Origin: Escherichia coli
GTDB taxonomy: Bacteria > Pseudomonadota > Gammaproteobacteria > Enterobacterales > Enterobacteriaceae
Reading direction: 5' to 3' (one strand)
Length of the DNA: 64,000 bases
NCBI RefSeq assembly: GCF_050920415.1
Contig: NZ_CP169309.1
Shown: positions 23,308-64,000 of the stretch, piece after piece
Position numbering within the stretch: position 1 is the first letter of the stretch
Layout: the number at the start of each line of letters is the position of its first letter
Made by a program: the position numbers and the translations under genes
The notes under the pieces: generated by a model
Told to the model about the DNA's origin: nothing
The model's database searches: none
What the model saw: the letters and a program-made list of their open reading frames with translations, nothing else

Positions 23308-23898
23308 ATGTCTCGAATTTTTGCTTACTGTCGGATATCAACGCTGGATCAGACCATCGAAAATCAACGCCGGGAAATCGAAAGTGCAGGTTTTAAAATC
23401 AAACCTCAGCAAATAATCGAAGAACACATTAGCGGCTCAGCAGCAACCAGTGAGCGTCCTGGTTTTAACCGGTTGCTTGCTCGCCTGAAATGTGGTGATC
23501 AATTGATTGTGACAAAACTGGATCGCCTTGGTTGTAATGCAATGGATATCAGGAAAACAGTGGAACAACTGACCGAAACAGGTATCAGAGTGCATTGCTT
23601 AGCATTGGGGGGCATTGACCTGACCAGTCCAACAGGAAAAATGATGATGCACGTAATTTCAGCAGTCGCTGAATTTGAACGAGACCTTTTACTTGAACGC
23701 ACTCATTCCGGGATAGTAAGAGCCCGCGGCGCAGGGAAACGTTTTGGTCGACCACCTGTGTTAAATGAAGAACAGAAACAGGTGGTATTCGAACGAATTA
23801 AGTCAGGTGTAAGTATAAGTGCCATTGCCCGGGAATTCAAAACCTCGCGGCAAACCATTTTAAGAGCCAAAGCAAAACTTCAGACACCTGACATATAA
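23308..23898 (+). CDS. Small serine recombinase (resolvase/invertase family)
   Basis: 196-aa ORF; N-terminal catalytic motif YCRISTLDQ (Ser nucleophile), resolvase-type core and C-terminal HTH. Confidence 0.85.
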
Positions 23899-23995
23899 AA
23901 AATAATCTCGGTGTGAGATGCTTTACGTCTTCCAAGCCCCCTTCCTTGCCGTAAATGGAAAGATACATCTAATTATAGAATTTATATGTTTTACC

Positions 23996-24571
23996 CTACG
24001 GCAGTGCTGGCCATTCAATATCCTGTGCAGTTGACGTATCAACACGGTTCAGCAACACCCGATACTTTTTCCAGGCTTCCAGCAATGAGGTTTCTTCCTC
24101 CGTTGCGATTTCCAGATCTACAGCATCCTGAAGTGGCGCAATATGCTCACTGGCTACCTGCATCAGGCTGTTTTTTGTTTCTTCCGCCTCTCGGATCCGG
24201 AACAGTTTTTCTGCTTCTGCATCTTTCACCCAGGCTGTGCCGTTCCACTTCTGAAACTCCCCTTCCGGCGATAACCAGGTAACATTTTCCGGTAACGGAC
24301 CGAGTTCAGAAATAAATAACGCGTCCCCTGACGCTACGTCATAAACCGTTTTACCCCGATGGTCTTCAACGAGATGCCACGATGCCTTATCACTGTTGAA
24401 AACAGCCACAAAGCCAGCAGGAATATCTGGTGGTGCAATATCGGTACTGTTTGCTGGCAGACCTGTATGAGGCGGAATATATGCGTCACCTTCACCAATA
24501 AATTCATTAGTTCCGGCCAGCAGATTATAAATTTTTATGGTCCGTGGTTGTTCACTCATTCTGAATGCCAT
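23996..24571 (-). CDS. tfa: Tail fibre assembly protein Tfa
   Basis: 191-aa ORF immediately downstream of stf; lambda Tfa-like. Confidence 0.9.
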
Positions 24572-32411: not shown

Positions 32412-33052
32412 TTGTCGGTGTACCTCTCTCGTTTGCTCAGTTGTTCAGGAATATGGTGCAGCAGCTCGCCGTCGCCGCAGTAAATTGCGGCGTGATTCGG
32501 CACCGATGAACCAAAACAGCACAGCAGCACATCGCCCGGCTGTGCCGCTGACAACGGCACCTGATACAGCCCCGTCGCCTCCAGATTATCCAGATAGAGA
32601 TTCTGGCCGTTACGCCACCAGTCATCCTCACGATGAAAGTCCGGCATCTCAATCCCCGCCAGATGATAAGCATCCCGGAACAGTGTGTAACAGTCCGTCA
32701 CACCGTGCTCAAAGCGCCGCCCGGTGAGATGCGGCACACAGCGGAACTTATGAATCGTCCCCCGGCAGACCAGCCACCACGGCAAATCACTCTGCACCTG
32801 CAGCCGCCGGTCGGCCTCACTCAGCCAGGGCAGACCACCGGGGTGGCTGTGGACCAGCGCCACAATCTCACCCTGCATTTCTGCCTGCAGCCAGTCTTCC
32901 GGCGACATACGGAAATACGCCTCCGGCTCACCGGAGATATTCACGCAGGGGAAATATCTTTCCCCCTCCGGCGTGCTTACCACGAAGCCGCACGACTCCG
33001 CTGGCGCACATCGCCGGGCGTGCGCCAGAATCGCTGATTCTGTCTGTGTCAT
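32309..33052 (-). CDS. K: Tail assembly protein K (NlpC/P60-like)
   Basis: ORF directly after L in lambda order; Cys/His peptidase-like motifs. Confidence 0.88.
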   Translation of the reverse strand: MTQTESAILAHARRCAPAESCGFVVSTPEGERYFPCVNISGEPEAYFRMSPEDWLQAEMQGEIVALVHSHPGGLPWLSEADRRLQVQSDLPWWLVCRGTIHKFRCVPHLTGRRFEHGVTDCYTLFRDAYHLAGIEMPDFHREDDWWRNGQNLYLDNLEATGLYQVPLSAAQPGDVLLCCFGSSVPNHAAIYCGDGELLHHIPEQLSKRERYTDKWQRRTHSLWRHRAWRASAFTGIYNDLVAASTFV

Positions 33053-33057
33053 GGGAT

Positions 33058-33756
33058 TTACTGCGAAAGTTTGTTAATGGAAAGGAAGCCGCCAAAGTTG
33101 CCGACGTTATTGCGGAACTTACAACCGCTCAGGCATTTGCTGCATTTATCCTTCGTGATATCGGACGTTGGCTGGTCATATTCATCCGCGACAGCCGGAC
33201 CGCTATAACCGCACTCGTCACCGCGATAGGTCCAGGTGCAGGTGTTGGCCAGCATGATACGTCCCGGAAAAACAGCGCCATCCGTTTCCGTCGGCGTGGA
33301 CAGTACAAAGGAGGCACTCACCGCGCTCAGTTCGCTGCACTGCTCAATGCGCCAGCGGCTGATCACCTCCTGCTCCGGATCGGCATAACTGTTTCCGTTG
33401 ACGAAGTTCACCGCATCCAGAAAACGGGCGTAAACCTTACGCCGGACCACCGTTCCGCCGACCAGACTCTGCATATCTTCCGCCATCCCGGTGACCATAC
33501 CGTACAGGTTAGAAACCGTCAGCGTGGGGCGCGTACTGGTGCCTTTGCCATTCAGTTCAAAACCGCTCCCCTGAATGGGATACGGCTGATACTGTCGCCC
33601 CTGCCAGGTGACCGGCTCACCTTTTTCGTTCTGCTCATTACAGAAAAAATAACGTTCTCCACCGACCTCTGTCAGGTCGATTTCCCAGAGCACCACGCTG
33701 GCCGACTGCTCCGCACGGGTGCATTCATTCAGTGTTTCCTGCCGGATATCCTGCAT
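33058..33756 (-). CDS. L: Minor tail protein L
   Basis: 232-aa ORF, lambda gpL length and order. Confidence 0.9.
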   Translation of the reverse strand: MQDIRQETLNECTRAEQSASVVLWEIDLTEVGGERYFFCNEQNEKGEPVTWQGRQYQPYPIQGSGFELNGKGTSTRPTLTVSNLYGMVTGMAEDMQSLVGGTVVRRKVYARFLDAVNFVNGNSYADPEQEVISRWRIEQCSELSAVSASFVLSTPTETDGAVFPGRIMLANTCTWTYRGDECGYSGPAVADEYDQPTSDITKDKCSKCLSGCKFRNNVGNFGGFLSINKLSQ

Positions 33757-50998: not shown

Positions 50999-52096
50999 AT
51001 GAAAAAATTAACAGTGGCAATTTCTGCTGTAGCTGCATCAGTACTGATGGCGATGTCTGCTCAGGCAGCTGAAATTTATAATAAAGACAGTAACAAGCTG
51101 GATCTGTACGGGAAAGTTAATGCTAAGCACTACTTCTCCTCTAATGATGCAGATGATGGTGATACTACTTATGCCCGTCTTGGCTTCAAAGGTGAAACCC
51201 AAATCAACGATCAGCTGACTGGTTTCGGTCAGTGGGAATATGAATTCAAAGGCAACCGCGCTGAATCTCAAGGTTCCTCCAAAGACAAAACCCGTCTTGC
51301 ATTTGCAGGCCTGAAATTCGGTGACTACGGCTCAATCGATTACGGCCGTAACTACGGTGTAGCATACGACATCGGTGCGTGGACTGACGTTCTGCCAGAA
51401 TTCGGTGGCGATACCTGGACCCAAACAGATGTGTTCATGACTGGTCGTACCACTGGTGTTGCAACCTATCGTAACAACGACTTCTTTGGTCTGGTTGATG
51501 GTCTGAACTTTGCTGCTCAGTACCAAGGCAAAAACGATCGTAGCGATTTCGATAACTACACTGAAGGTAACGGTGATGGCTTCGGTTTCTCTGCTACCTA
51601 TGAATACGAAGGATTCGGTATCGGTGCAACTTATGCGAAATCTGATCGTACCGACACTCAAGTTAATGCAGGGAAAGTTCTTCCTGAAGTATTTGCTTCC
51701 GGTAAAAATGCAGAAGTTTGGGCCGCAGGTCTGAAATATGACGCTAACAACATTTACCTGGCCACTACCTATTCTGAAACCCAGAATATGACTGTATTTG
51801 CTGATCACTTCGTTGCTAATAAAGCTCAAAACTTCGAAGCTGTTGCACAATATCAGTTCGATTTCGGTCTGCGTCCGTCCGTTGCTTACCTGCAATCTAA
51901 AGGTAAGGATCTTGGAGTATGGGGCGATCAGGACTTAGTCAAATATGTTGATGTAGGTGCAACCTATTACTTCAACAAAAATATGTCTACTTTCGTTGAT
52001 TACAAAATCAACCTGCTTGACAAAAATGACTTCACTAAAGCACTCGGTGTAAGCACTGATGACATCGTTGCTGTAGGTCTGGTTTACCAGTTCTAA
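50999..52096 (+). CDS. nmpC: Prophage-encoded general porin NmpC (OmpC/OmpF family)
   Basis: 365-aa ORF with signal peptide, porin beta-barrel signature and C-terminal Phe (VGLVYQF); between Q and the holin as in DLP12. Confidence 0.92.
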
Positions 52097-55098: not shown

Positions 55099-55707
55099 TT
55101 ATTGCAACAGATTCTGACGGAAATATGGTAACACACGACTCCACTTATCATCCTGCCACGGTTGGAATTTTACATGCGCCGTTTCTCTGGCAAGGATTTC
55201 TCGCGCCCTGTTGAGTATCCGAGGATATTCTTGTTCGATTGAAGTGAATCTACCTGCTTCGCGATGCTCTGCGACCTGAAGAAGGGGCGTAACGTTCTGG
55301 CAGGCGGTTAACATCGTATCACTTGCTCGCCATAACCAGGCGAGTGTGCAAAGTTCGTTATCAGTGAATTGTTTTGTGATTGGGGATTGTTGAACTTCTC
55401 GATCGAGAATATCCAGAACCCAGCGGCGGAATTCTTTGGCCACAGGAGTACGAGCAAACATGGCGATCAAATGGGCTCCGCGAAGGCTAAATACTCGAGA
55501 CTCCTGCATTCCACGAGGGGTGGTCACTTTGACCACCCTTGTCATCATATCTGTGAATTCATCTGAGTGCCGAGAGTAAATGCGCTGAACTGCTTTATCG
55601 TCCGCATATTCCAGTGCTAAACCAACTTCAGTGGCAGTAAGCCAAATTCTGTTATTGTGGCAAATCGGGGTAAACGTCGTTTTGTGGAATGCTAATTGAG
55701 TAGTCAT
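55099..55707 (-). CDS. Bro-N domain phage antirepressor-like protein
   Basis: 202-aa ORF; N-terminal region (HNNRIWLTATEVGLALEY...RVFSLRGAHLIAM) resembles Bro-N. Confidence 0.7.
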   Translation of the reverse strand: MTTQLAFHKTTFTPICHNNRIWLTATEVGLALEYADDKAVQRIYSRHSDEFTDMMTRVVKVTTPRGMQESRVFSLRGAHLIAMFARTPVAKEFRRWVLDILDREVQQSPITKQFTDNELCTLAWLWRASDTMLTACQNVTPLLQVAEHREAGRFTSIEQEYPRILNRAREILARETAHVKFQPWQDDKWSRVLPYFRQNLLQ

Positions 55708-56123
55708 AGTATCACCTCATCAGGTTAACCATCACCACCAACGACGCCAATCGACTGGTGGTGAACTGTGTAAGGTTGGCGTAACCGGCTACTCAAACCC
55801 GGCGCTTCCGAAGAAGCCCTCACACAGCCCACCATAATTTGGGCATAGCCGTGCTTAGCGCACAAAAAAACCGCTTAACGCGGTATGCGTTGAGTAGTAT
55901 CCCGGGACGCCAATCCCGTGTGCCGATTTTGCGGCAACGCACAGAATATAGCGCCGGATAAATCATGTCGTCAACCCCAGTAAATGGACACCATGATGAT
56001 CACAGCCATAGCTGCTACAACAGTTACAACTACCTCAGGCCAAAACATAACGATTTCCATATCACCTTTAGCCGCCAGACGAATAGAGACTCCCAATTCT
56101 GGCTGTCGAAGTAAAACACCGAA

Positions 56124-56519: not shown

Positions 56520-58022
56520 ATGACTCAAACTCCTCTATTACTTGCAATCATATTTTTATTGGTTGTTCTTGTTCTTTATATAGCTGCAATCAAACGCATC
56601 AAAAAAATACAATTAGAATTAAGTGATAGCAATCAAAAAAATGAAGAATACAAATCTCGCTTTGCAGATTATTTTAATGTAGAAGAAGAATGTAAGAAGC
56701 TTATTGAGAAAACAGAGCAAGAATGCTCCATAATAAAAGAAGAATCCCTAAAAGTAAAAGAAAATGCCAATAATGAACTAACAAACACCATTGAAAAAAT
56801 GGATGGTATCAATAAACAAATCCAAGAGCTAAGAAGAACTTATAAAGAGAAGAAAGAAATATATGATAAACTAGTAAGGCAAATTTCTATTTATTCAGAA
56901 GATGTTGAGCTAGCCGAACTAGGATTTTACGAACCTCATTTTAATTTTGAAGATTCAGAGCAATTTAAAAACAAAATAAAATCCATCAGGGATGAACAGA
57001 AATTAATGCTGCGGGATAAAACCCACTCTGGCGCAGTATATTGTACAACCCAATGGACTGTTGAAGGCTCTCGAGCAGAGGGTAAAAAAATGACAGACAG
57101 AAATATCAGGCTAACTACTAGAGCATTTAATAATGAATGTGATGCTGCAATTAGCAATTGCACGTGGAAAAACATCACTAAAATGGAAGAACGCATCACA
57201 AAGGCATTTGAGGCCATAAATAAACTAAACGAGCAAAATCACATATATATAAACACTAAATACCTCAATAAAAAACTTGAGGAATTGTGGCTTACCCATG
57301 AATATCGTGAGCAAAAACAGAAAGAAAAAGAAGAACAGGCAGAAATAAGGGCACAAATGAGAGAGGAGGAGCGTGCACAACGAGAAATAGAAAAGGCCAT
57401 GCAAGACGCAGAGGCAGAAGAGCGCCGTTATAAAAAAGCAATTGAAGCTGCAAGAAAGGAAATGGAAAAAGTTACTGGTGACATGAAGCAGCGCCTCGAA
57501 AATCGCATTGCCGAACTAGAACAGAGTTTGTCGCAGGCTGAATCAAAGCATCAAAGAGCATTATCCATGGCACAACAAACCAAACAAGGTCATGTTTATA
57601 TTATTTCGAACATAGGTTCTTTTGGGGAGAATGTTTATAAAATAGGCATGACACGACGTCTTGATCCGCAAGACCGTGTAAATGAGCTCGGTGATGCATC
57701 TGTTCCTTTTATTTTTGATGTACATGCCATGATTTATTCGGAGGACGCTCCATCATTAGAAAAAAAACTACATGATGTCTTCGATAAAAAGAGAGTCAAT
57801 CTTGTAAATCGTAGAAAAGAGTTTTTCTATGTTACTCTGGATGAGATCAAAGAAGCTGTTAAAAAACACTCTGATTCAGAAATTGAATTTATTGAGACAG
57901 CAGTCGCAAAAGACTTTAATGAGTCATTGGCTATTCGTAATCATGAAAATAAAAAAAGTGACAACAGCAACTCATCAATTATACCTGAGCGAAAAACCCC
58001 AGAGTTTGCAGATGCAATTTAA
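56520..58022 (+). CDS. Membrane-anchored coiled-coil protein with C-terminal T5orf172 (GIY-YIG-like) domain; DUF4041-like architecture
   Basis: 500-aa ORF, AAGGA 8 nt before the ATG; N-terminal TM helix (LLLAIIFLLVVLVLYIAAI), long K/E/Q-rich coiled-coil, C-terminal block VYIISNIGSFGENVYKIGMTRRLDPQDRVNELGDASVPF...LEKKLHDVFDKKRVN. Opposite strand to all neighbours. Confidence 0.7.
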   Translation: MTQTPLLLAIIFLLVVLVLYIAAIKRIKKIQLELSDSNQKNEEYKSRFADYFNVEEECKKLIEKTEQECSIIKEESLKVKENANNELTNTIEKMDGINKQIQELRRTYKEKKEIYDKLVRQISIYSEDVELAELGFYEPHFNFEDSEQFKNKIKSIRDEQKLMLRDKTHSGAVYCTTQWTVEGSRAEGKKMTDRNIRLTTRAFNNECDAAISNCTWKNITKMEERITKAFEAINKLNEQNHIYINTKYLNKKLEELWLTHEYREQKQKEKEEQAEIRAQMREEERAQREIEKAMQDAEAEERRYKKAIEAARKEMEKVTGDMKQRLENRIAELEQSLSQAESKHQRALSMAQQTKQGHVYIISNIGSFGENVYKIGMTRRLDPQDRVNELGDASVPFIFDVHAMIYSEDAPSLEKKLHDVFDKKRVNLVNRRKEFFYVTLDEIKEAVKKHSDSEIEFIETAVAKDFNESLAIRNHENKKSDNSNSSIIPERKTPEFADAI

Positions 58023-61227: not shown

Positions 61228-61917
61228 ATGAAAACAACACTCTCAGAAAGACTTAAAGAAGCCAGATTAGCGCGAGGCCTTACACAAAAGGCGCTTGGGG
61301 ATTTGGTCGGGGTTAGCCAAGCTGCTATTCAGAAAATCGAAACAGGGAAAGCTAACCAAACAACTAAAATCGTGGAGATCGCGAACGCTTTGGGTGTGCG
61401 CGCAGAATGGTTATCTTCTGGCGTTGGAAATATGTCAGACAGTACAGTGCAACCAATACAATCAACTGTCAGCCATTCCAAATACTTCAAAATTGACGTT
61501 CTTGATATAGAAGTCAGTGCCGGGCCAGGTGTAATCAACCGTGAGTTTGTAGAAGTTCTACGCTCGGTTGAGTACTCGTTTGACGATGCTCGTCACATGT
61601 TCGATGGCAGGAAGGCGGAAAATATCCGCATCATTAACGTGCGAGGTGACAGCATGTCAGGGACGATCGAACCAGGTGACCTGCTGTTCGTTGATATCAC
61701 TGTTAAATCTTTCGACGGTGATGGCATCTATGCGTTTCTGTACGACGACACTGCCCATGTAAAACGTCTTCAAATGATGAAGGATAAGCTGCTGGTTATC
61801 TCTGATAACAAGAGCTACTCGCCGTGGGACCCGATCGAGAAAGACGAGATGAACCGGGTGTTCATATTCGGTAAGGTCATTGGAAGCATGCCGCAGACGT
61901 ACAGGAAGCATGGTTAA
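61228..61917 (+). CDS. cI: Prophage repressor, LexA/CI-like with S24 peptidase domain
   Basis: 229-aa ORF; N-terminal HTH (LTQKALGDLVGVSQAAIQKIETGK), C-terminal autocleavage domain (GDSM Ser, VKR Lys); not lambda immunity. Confidence 0.9.
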   Translation: MKTTLSERLKEARLARGLTQKALGDLVGVSQAAIQKIETGKANQTTKIVEIANALGVRAEWLSSGVGNMSDSTVQPIQSTVSHSKYFKIDVLDIEVSAGPGVINREFVEVLRSVEYSFDDARHMFDGRKAENIRIINVRGDSMSGTIEPGDLLFVDITVKSFDGDGIYAFLYDDTAHVKRLQMMKDKLLVISDNKSYSPWDPIEKDEMNRVFIFGKVIGSMPQTYRKHG

Positions 61918-62146: not shown

Positions 62147-62527
62147 ATGAGAAAAATCCTAATCGCTGCCATGATGGCATCTGTATTGGCTGGGTGTGCT
62201 TCTTCAGGCAACCAGCAACTCAAAAATGAAACTGAAATTAGTGTCCAGTCTAAACTTCAGGAAGGTAAAACAACCAAGAATGAGGTTAAATCTTACTTTG
62301 GTTCTCCTGATGCTGTTTCATATACTGACAGTGGAAACGAGATCTGGAAGTACGCCTTTGCAAAAGTAAAAGTTAATGGCACCACTTTTATTCCATTCTA
62401 TGGATTATTCCATAATGGAACGAACGGTACGAAAAAAGAACTTACTATTCTTTTTAACGATGACACGATTAAGAAATACACAATGTCAGAAACCCAAATA
62501 AACTCGAAATCAGGTTGGGCTGACTGA
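62147..62527 (+). CDS. Outer-membrane lipoprotein, BamE/SmpA-OmlA-like, in the rex position
   Basis: 126-aa ORF with lipobox (VLAGCASS); KNEVKSYFGSPDAVSYTDSGNEIWKYAF...LTILFNDDTIKKYT resembles the BamE fold family. Confidence 0.6.
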   Translation: MRKILIAAMMASVLAGCASSGNQQLKNETEISVQSKLQEGKTTKNEVKSYFGSPDAVSYTDSGNEIWKYAFAKVKVNGTTFIPFYGLFHNGTNGTKKELTILFNDDTIKKYTMSETQINSKSGWAD

Positions 62528-62534
62528 TAATCAT

Positions 62535-62562
62535 ACCCGGCAACCGCGCCGGGTTTTCTTTT
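62535..62562 (+). terminator. Intrinsic terminator after the repressor-lipoprotein unit
   Basis: Stem CCCGGC / GCCGGG with 6-nt loop followed by TTTTCTTTT, 8 nt after the lipoprotein stop. Confidence 0.65.
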
Positions 62563-62687
62563 CCTCCCCCTCATAACTCATACCGTCCAAAAAACCACCA
62601 CACCTCACTTCAGTTATCGCTATGCGATGCAAGTCACAAAATAAATCCATCCTAAATACAACCAGTTATATTTAAAACAACCGACAA

Positions 62688-62717
62688 AACAACTTTTGTT
62701 GTTGACGATAAAACAAC
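62688..62717. promoter_or_regulatory. Candidate left operator: AACAAC-TTTT-GTTGTT-N8-AACAAC
   Basis: Same GTTGTT/AACAAC half-sites as the right operator, on the other side of the repressor gene. Confidence 0.4.
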
Positions 62718-62923
62718 TATAGTTTTAAATAAATTCATCGCAACGACACAACGATACGGTAACCACCTGTTTCACCGTGGCGATGACCGCTTAGATCCGC
62801 AGTTTGAATTTCAGCAGGCTTCGGGGAGTGCGAGGGGTGAAACGGACGCGTGAACGTCGGTGTGACCAGCTGAAATCAACACAACACTTTATACCTCAGT
62901 CGCTTCAACGAGGCGGCTTAGTT

Positions 62924-63214
62924 ATGACAACCGGCGGCCATCCACCGCCTGAATACGCGCAGAAGTCTCTATATGTTCAGCAGCCCAGCTTACGGGCAGG
63001 AGTTTTTATGGTTCATCAACATTACGGAACGCAGACCGTTAATCGCGGTGCGGTCATGCCAGGAATGCTGGTCAAACACAAAGATGGTACCTGGACTGCA
63101 TCAGCTAATTTACGCGGACGGCTTTATCTGCATCGCGGCATCGAGCGCACTTATACCCGTGATTTGCTCGTGGAAGTTTTTCTCGACGGACGCGGTAACG
63201 GCCTCAATCACTAA
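62924..63214 (+). CDS. Hypothetical early-left-operon protein (97 aa from ATG; frame open upstream to 62804)
   Basis: ATG at 62924 with GAGG upstream; upstream in-frame extension encodes an Arg-rich stretch (RGVKRTRERR) but has only TTG/GTG starts. Confidence 0.3.
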
Positions 63215-63289
63215 TCCCCTTTCCTGTTTTCCTAATCAGCCTGGCATTTCGCGGGCGATATTTTCACAGCCATTTTCAGGAGTTCAGCC

Positions 63290-63586
63290 ATGAACGCTTA
63301 TTACATTCAGGATCGTCTTGAGGCTCAGAGCTGGGCGCGTCACTACCAGCAGATCGCCCGTGAAGAGAAAGAGGCAGAACTGGCAGACGACATGGAAAAA
63401 GGCCTGCCCCAGCACCTGTTTGAATCGCTATGCATCGATCATTTGCAACGCCACGGGGCCAGCAAAAAAGCCATTACCCGTGCGTTTGATGACGATGTTG
63501 AGTTTCAGGAGCGCATGGCAGAACACATCCGGTACATGGTTGAAACCATTGCTCACCACCAGGTTGATATTGATTCAGAGGTATAA
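63290..63586 (+). CDS. gam: Gam (RecBCD inhibitor), short form GamS
   Basis: 98-aa ORF matching lambda GamS ([44 protein letters not shown]...). Confidence 0.95.
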
Positions 63587-63591
63587 AACGG

Positions 63592-64000
63592 ATGAGTACA
63601 GCACTCGCAACGCTGGCAGGGAAGCTGGCTGAACGTGTCGGCATGGATTCTGTCGACCCACAGGAACTGATCACCACTCTTCGCCAGACGGCATTTAAAG
63701 GTGATGCCAGCGATGCGCAGTTCATCGCATTGTTGATCGTCGCCAACCAGTACGGCCTTAATCCGTGGACGAAAGAAATTTACGCCTTCCCTGATAAGCA
63801 GAACGGCATCGTTCCGGTGGTGGGCGTTGATGGCTGGTCCCGCATCATCAATGAAAACCAGCAGTTTGATGGTATGGACTTTGAGCAGGACAATGAATCC
63901 TGCACATGCCGGATTTACCGCAAGGACCGCAATCATCCGATCTGCGTTACCGAGTGGATGGATGAATGCCGCCGCGAACCATTCAAAACCCGCGAAGGCA
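63592..64000 (+). CDS. bet: Bet (Red-beta single-strand annealing protein), 5' partial, runs off window
   Basis: Hand-translated MSTALATLAGKLAERVGMDSVDPQELITTLRQTAFKGDASDAQFIALLIVANQYGLNPWTKEIYAFPDKQNG... matches lambda Bet; not in ORF track because no stop lies within the window. Confidence 0.95.
   Translation, partial: MSTALATLAGKLAERVGMDSVDPQELITTLRQTAFKGDASDAQFIALLIVANQYGLNPWTKEIYAFPDKQNGIVPVVGVDGWSRIINENQQFDGMDFEQDNESCTCRIYRKDRNHPICVTEWMDECRREPFKTREG

Follow-up and report, generated by a model that had tools for sequence, protein, structure and literature searches.

Whether a gam gene can give rise to the long form of its product, GamL, or only to the short form, GamS, is a question raised by a locus at the end of a 64,000-nucleotide stretch of Escherichia coli DNA (contig NZ_CP169309.1; hereafter the window). 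According to an initial annotation, only the short form can be made here. The lambda Gam protein has been described in two isoforms, GamL and GamS, the latter being composed of residues 41-138 and representing the form that was solved in complex with RecBCD, which it binds and inhibits (PMC5218532). Both forms are active when expressed, as seen by quinolone potentiation from plasmids (PMC5218532). Since lambda GamL is treated as a real isoform (PMC5218532, PMC11610958), the extension may have a function in lambda-type phages. Nothing was found in the literature that settles which form lambda makes in vivo, and a text search for ribosome-profiling evidence on the lambda gam start yielded nothing specific.

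The open reading frame list, Pfam, PHROG, the lambda identity and a PDB match all assign gam (63290..63586, + strand) to a 98-aa RecBCD inhibitor of the GamS type. Its product is identical to lambda Gam residues 41-138 at 96 of 98 positions, and it is a full-length member of the Gam family (PF06064 / PHROG 259), above the curated cut-off: the PF06064 profile, which has 98 positions, matches residues 1-98 with 216.8 bits (cut-off 25; E=3.4e-65), and the PHROG 259 match covers 1-98/98 (1.2e-60). The same residues 1-98 match the PDB chains 5mbv_A and 2uuz_A (E about 2.5e-61), which are 98-99 residues long; the Gam entries in the PDB (5mbv, 2uuz/2uv1) represent the 98-99-residue form. Given the 98% identity to the characterised protein (PMC5218532), the window Gam may be expected to inhibit RecBCD. 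A Shine-Dalgarno (SD) sequence, AGGAG, can be read at 63278..63282 (+), 7 nt before the gam ATG. It is kept in 15/15 related loci as well as in Salmonella phage SEN34, and the records of phage 434 and phage 21 annotate the gam SD as a ribosome binding site. Judging from the SD sequence, its conservation and the family length, translation would start at 63290. The Gam proteins of Shigella phage 75/02 Stx (85% identical) and SEN34 (72% identical) are also 98 aa long from the same Met, in both cases behind a strong SD. In 75/02 Stx a stop lies one codon upstream and there is no usable upstream frame; in SEN34 the 21 open codons upstream of the gam Met hold no start codon. From the family profiles and the divergent homologues the family length of 98 is settled, and the 98-residue protein is the conserved unit.

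Between kil and gam lies a leader of 75 nt (63215..63289, +), the lambda homologue of which is the portion of the GamL extension not overlapped by kil. An alignment of the window with lambda NC_001416 revealed near-identity from TCACTAA (about 63208) on, with a single gap. The two leaders are about 95% identical, and the match is one of DNA homology, not of chance. When CCATTTTCAGG of the window is compared with CTATTTCAGG of lambda, it becomes clear that the window run 63273-63276 is longer by one T and that a T>C exchange is present at 63271. The polymorphic site (63271..63276, +) accordingly reads C + TTTT in the window (C at 63271, TTTT at 63273-63276) and T + TTT in lambda; 63215 and 63242 are the sites of the other substitutions. 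The T-run is immediately 5' to the SD of gam, and the spacing between SD and ATG is unaffected. The comparison with lambda DNA had been set beforehand as the check on a proposed 1-nt insertion in this run, and the indel is indeed present (TTTT vs TTT). The length difference is real, but the term insertion presumes that lambda has the ancestral state. Homology with the leader of the SEN34 outgroup is limited to about 24 nt (the SD region) and gives no polarity to the change.

As a consequence of the extra T relative to lambda, the frame that encodes the GamL-like peptide is out of phase with gam. In the frame-1 translation of 63130-63330, the peptide at 63217..63270 agrees with residues 17-34 of lambda GamL in 17 of 18 positions, the exception being P>L. 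The end of the leader translation in the gam frame, FRSSAM, agrees with lambda again, which places the change of frame between HS and FRSS. The peptide frame is open only from 63199, after a TAA at 63196-98, and is devoid of ATG, GTG and TTG. TAA codons interrupt the gam frame at 63212-14, where the upstream kil also terminates, and at 63233-35; the 18 open codons between the second stop and ATG 63290 are equally free of ATG, GTG and TTG. Neither a stop-free run of leader codons 17-40 in the phase of gam nor, within kil, an ATG in frame with the GamS Met and 40 codons ahead of it is found in the window. Since the gam frame is stopped and has no start codon after the second stop, only the 98-aa form is possible. 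The initial annotation had pointed out a peptide upstream of the gam ATG that resembles the N-terminal part of lambda GamL in another frame, and translation and alignment agree with it; the in-frame stop it reported is there, in fact twice, and its view that GamS alone is encoded is borne out by a GamL extension that is both out of frame and stopped relative to lambda. Its placement of the extension at 63199-63292 was accurate.

The indel is not the only barrier to GamL. The gene upstream of the leader, kil (63008..63214, +; stop TAA 63212-14), encodes a Rac KilR-type FtsZ/cell-division inhibitor (NF008465, PHROG 294). It sits in the kil position, and NF008465 (FtsZ inhibitor protein) aligns to residues 58-125 of a 125-aa open reading frame over profile positions 1-70 of 73. 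As the score of 61 bits is below the NCBIfam cut-off of 92, the product is a relative of KilR, not an equivalog; PHROG 294 (Kil) matches the upstream reading frame with 1.8e-38. Because the KilR profile aligns only to residues 58-125, kil probably starts at ATG 63008 behind AGGAG and encodes 68 aa. Related records annotate the Kil CDS from GTG 62837 with 125 aa (62837-63214), and in phages 1W and SEN34 genes of 207 nt are annotated at the kil position. A 106-codon reading frame at 62973..63293, the TGA of which overlaps the gam ATG, was rejected as spurious, being wholly inside kil in another frame. Upstream of 63208 the lambda alignment shows no homology to lambda kil, and the kil stop TAA at 63212-14 is the mosaic junction with lambda-like DNA. 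In lambda coordinates, kil occupies 33187..33330 and gam 32816..33232, the GamL ATG and the first 16 codons being located inside lambda kil. Since lambda homology begins only at the stop of the KilR-type kil, the GamL ATG and codons 1-16 are absent from the window, and a start for GamL is missing whatever the length of the T-run. PhiR5_1, which has the same kil type as the window and the lambda TTT allele, is still without an upstream start.

A comparison with named phages places the locus among its relatives. Lambda (gam, NP_040618, PDB 2UUZ/5MBV; GamL 138 aa / GamS 98 aa) shares with the window the order kil-gam-bet-exo, the SD and the ATG, but combines T + TTT with a lambda-type kil that supplies an in-frame ATG 40 codons upstream, whereas the window has neither. 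933W (AF125520) and Stx2 phage 86 (AB255436) share the C + TTTT allele of the window exactly, and their gam encodes 98 aa with 100% protein identity; they have a lambda-type kil and cIII upstream, in contrast to the KilR-type kil of the window. In both phages the GamL ATG is present but opens a 50-codon out-of-frame reading frame. In the record of Stx2 phage 86 the interrupted long frame appears as a pair of 'gam' CDSs (50 and 98 aa), and in the 933W record only the 98-aa gam is annotated. In PhiR26_1 (PV340555) and in prophages such as that of E. coli Z0117EC0116, the order cI-lipoprotein-Kil-Gam-Bet-Exo is the same and the region 63150-63600 (451 nt) is 100% identical. The PhiR26_1 record annotates the identical region as Gam-Bet-exonuclease; PhiR26_1 and the window prophage are the same phage type.

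The end of the window, in which a cI-type repressor gene, a lipoprotein gene, kil, gam and the start of bet follow each other on the + strand, constitutes the early leftward operon of a lambdoid prophage, seen in the direction of transcription. As in the lambdoid Red module, gam is followed by bet, from 63593 on the same strand and downstream of the putative pL; the window ends inside bet. The repressor gene (61228..61917, +) has Peptidase_S24 and HTH_3 domains. Directly downstream, at the rexAB position, lies the lipoprotein gene (62147..62527, +; 126 aa), which encodes a signal peptide plus Cys, belongs to PHROG 3135, has a weak BamE-like match and is followed by a strong intrinsic terminator at 62535-62564; it is probably a moron expressed in the lysogen. 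In the interval that separates the putative pL/operator (TTGACG...TATAGT, about 62700-62725) from kil (62690-63008), a gene for an N-like antiterminator is lacking, and PhiR26_1 is likewise annotated without N. The leader of about 270 nt before kil has no Rfam match and no distinctive fold (z = +0.2). Elsewhere in the prophage, a C4 antisense RNA (55754-55839) and an isrK RNA (55864-55936), both on the - strand, are found immediately upstream of a Bro-N/P22_AR_C antirepressor gene (55099..55707, -), a region reminiscent of the immunity cassettes of P1/P7, here within a lambdoid prophage. Two cargo genes are oriented opposite to the neighbouring large reading frames, namely a full-length Gram-negative porin gene (Porin_1, E=1e-156; 50999-52096, +) and a gene for a 500-aa DUF4041 + T5orf172/MUG113 protein (56520-58022, +). 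A Pin/Hin-type resolvase-invertase gene (23308..23898, +) abuts a tail-fibre assembly gene (23996..24571, -), and there is an Rfam IS009 match at 24030-24228 (-). This arrangement points to a tail-fibre segment that may be invertible, at the end of the prophage (23308-24571); the DNA before about 23.3 kb is assumed to be host chromosome.

The allele of the window is by no means restricted to this prophage. In all 15 loci examined (15/15), the C/T and the TTTT/TTT differences are linked. C + TTTT is carried by the window, PhiR26_1, 933W, Stx2-86, Chlobot, 1W and PhiR68_2, and T + TTT by lambda, 434, 21, SfI, VT2-Sakai, ev099, PhiR5_1 and PhiR11_1*. Within this set, the 138-codon frame occurs only in TTT phages that also have the lambda-type kil; it is intact in lambda, 434, 21, SfI, VT2-Sakai and ev099. 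For larger counts, an exact 62-mer stood for the window allele and an exact 61-mer for the lambda allele, and a 33-nt core was sought in 5,426 complete E. coli genomes. Among 180 phage records with the region, the window allele was found in 79 and the lambda allele in 81. In complete E. coli genomes, the respective oligomer was the exact best match in 1,421 records (window) and 745 records (lambda). The 33-nt core was present at 2,537 places in 2,235 genomes for the window allele and at 821 places in 782 genomes for the lambda allele. C + TTTT is thus a widespread haplotype and the majority state in E. coli prophages, not a private lesion. In PhiR11_1* (L011, 302-943), the kil stop has changed from TAA to TAC, the gam frame extends without a stop through the preceding 122 codons, and a 'Gam' of 213 aa is annotated. 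This, too, indicates that the DNA ahead of the GamS Met is free to vary.

We regard it as very probable that the leader is untranslated, that gam is expressed from its own ribosome binding site as a 98-aa protein, and that the haplotype and the kil module together preclude GamL in this phage. The segment 63215-63289 of this lambdoid prophage would be a leader that separates the KilR-type kil from gam and is not translated, and the 98-residue Gam would be produced from a strong ribosome binding site of its own (AGGAG, 7 nt, ATG 63290). In some phages, lambda among them, this leader happens to share the phase of gam and of an ATG within the lambda-type kil, thus yielding the 138-codon GamL frame, whereas in the window and most E. 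coli prophages the C + TTTT haplotype puts it out of phase. The kil module of the window, moreover, offers no start codon, so that GamL does not occur in this phage. The likeness of the leader to the GamL extension reflects DNA homology by way of a shared gam-bet-exo module, with the mosaic junction at the kil stop.

Alternatively, GamL could be an ancestral functional isoform that was lost here by frameshift, the leader being a decaying pseudo-extension. This scenario is in line with the intact 138-codon frame of several independent natural phages and with the fact that GamL has been reported as an isoform that is active when expressed. It is nonetheless unlikely. The family profiles and the divergent members lack the extension, the out-of-phase allele outnumbers the other about threefold in E. 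coli genomes, and the lambda GamL ATG has no SD in the preceding sequence (TATAAAAAATG; TATAAAAA). In addition, the P>L exchange and the further indels or stop loss in PhiR5_1 and PhiR11_1* leave the 98-aa gene intact, and in the window the first 16 codons were never there together with this kil type. On the weight of evidence, the extension is not under selection, since it is absent in distant relatives, out of phase in the majority of cases, and marked by nonsynonymous changes and by the indels and stop loss of PhiR5_1 and PhiR11_1*. We infer that loss of the GamL frame costs the phage nothing.

It is even conceivable that the TTT/TTTT dimorphism is a maintained switch for an extra long Gam in phages with the lambda-type kil, or that the conserved leader contains a cis-regulatory element, but we consider this very improbable. 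No RNA family was detected in the leader by Rfam, either when the whole window was scanned at gathering thresholds or when 62500-63320 was scanned at E<=1, and the RNA fold of 63205-63310 is not distinctive (z = -1.0). The record of lambda J02459 lists no regulatory features in the corresponding interval. A consensus scan gave three terminator-like sites in the region, with 1.3 expected by chance, but no convincing terminator in the leader. Only a weak terminator-like hairpin (scan site 63239-63256) was picked up there; at 63239-63266 it is composed of GCCTGG-CATTTCGC-GGGC followed by GATATTTTCA and is conserved in lambda, and it may correspond to one of the leftward tL2 terminators of lambda. 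If there were a switch, a long Gam with a distinct role would be implied, e.g. a different nuclease or defence-system target. Neither the switch nor the cis-element would alter the conclusion for the window, where GamL is impossible anyway.

A T-run is a classic site of errors, and the extra T might have arisen in sequencing or assembly of a homopolymer, the real phage carrying the lambda allele. This is scarcely credible, as the identical 62-mer is present in the 79 phage records, including that of the Sanger-era 933W (AF125520), and is the best match in the 1,421 E. coli records, the 33-nt core occurs at the 2,537 places, and PhiR26_1 and E. coli Z0117EC0116 agree with the window at 100% over all 451 nt of the region. 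Furthermore, TTTT always appears together with the neighbouring C (15/15 loci), which an indel error would not give. Finally, U-runs can promote slippage and the 50-codon reading frame that starts at the GamL ATG of 933W-type phages overlaps the gam start, but the idea that the T-run is a recoding site, at which ribosomal frameshifting or transcriptional slippage restores a long Gam, has practically no chance of being right. The upstream frame in the window has no start codon and is open only from 63199, so that ribosomes would have no frame from which to shift. A stimulatory structure is lacking (fold z-score -1.0), and the known sites of transcriptional slippage are much longer than four U.

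That gam of this prophage encodes GamS only is an ordinary finding, already recorded in existing phage records and of little consequence for the biology. For annotation, it means that gam is to be called from ATG 63290, and the allele counts are possibly of use to those working with GamL or GamS constructs. Most E. coli prophages do not share the 138-codon gam frame of the lambda reference, and differences from that reference should not be taken for lesions without caution.
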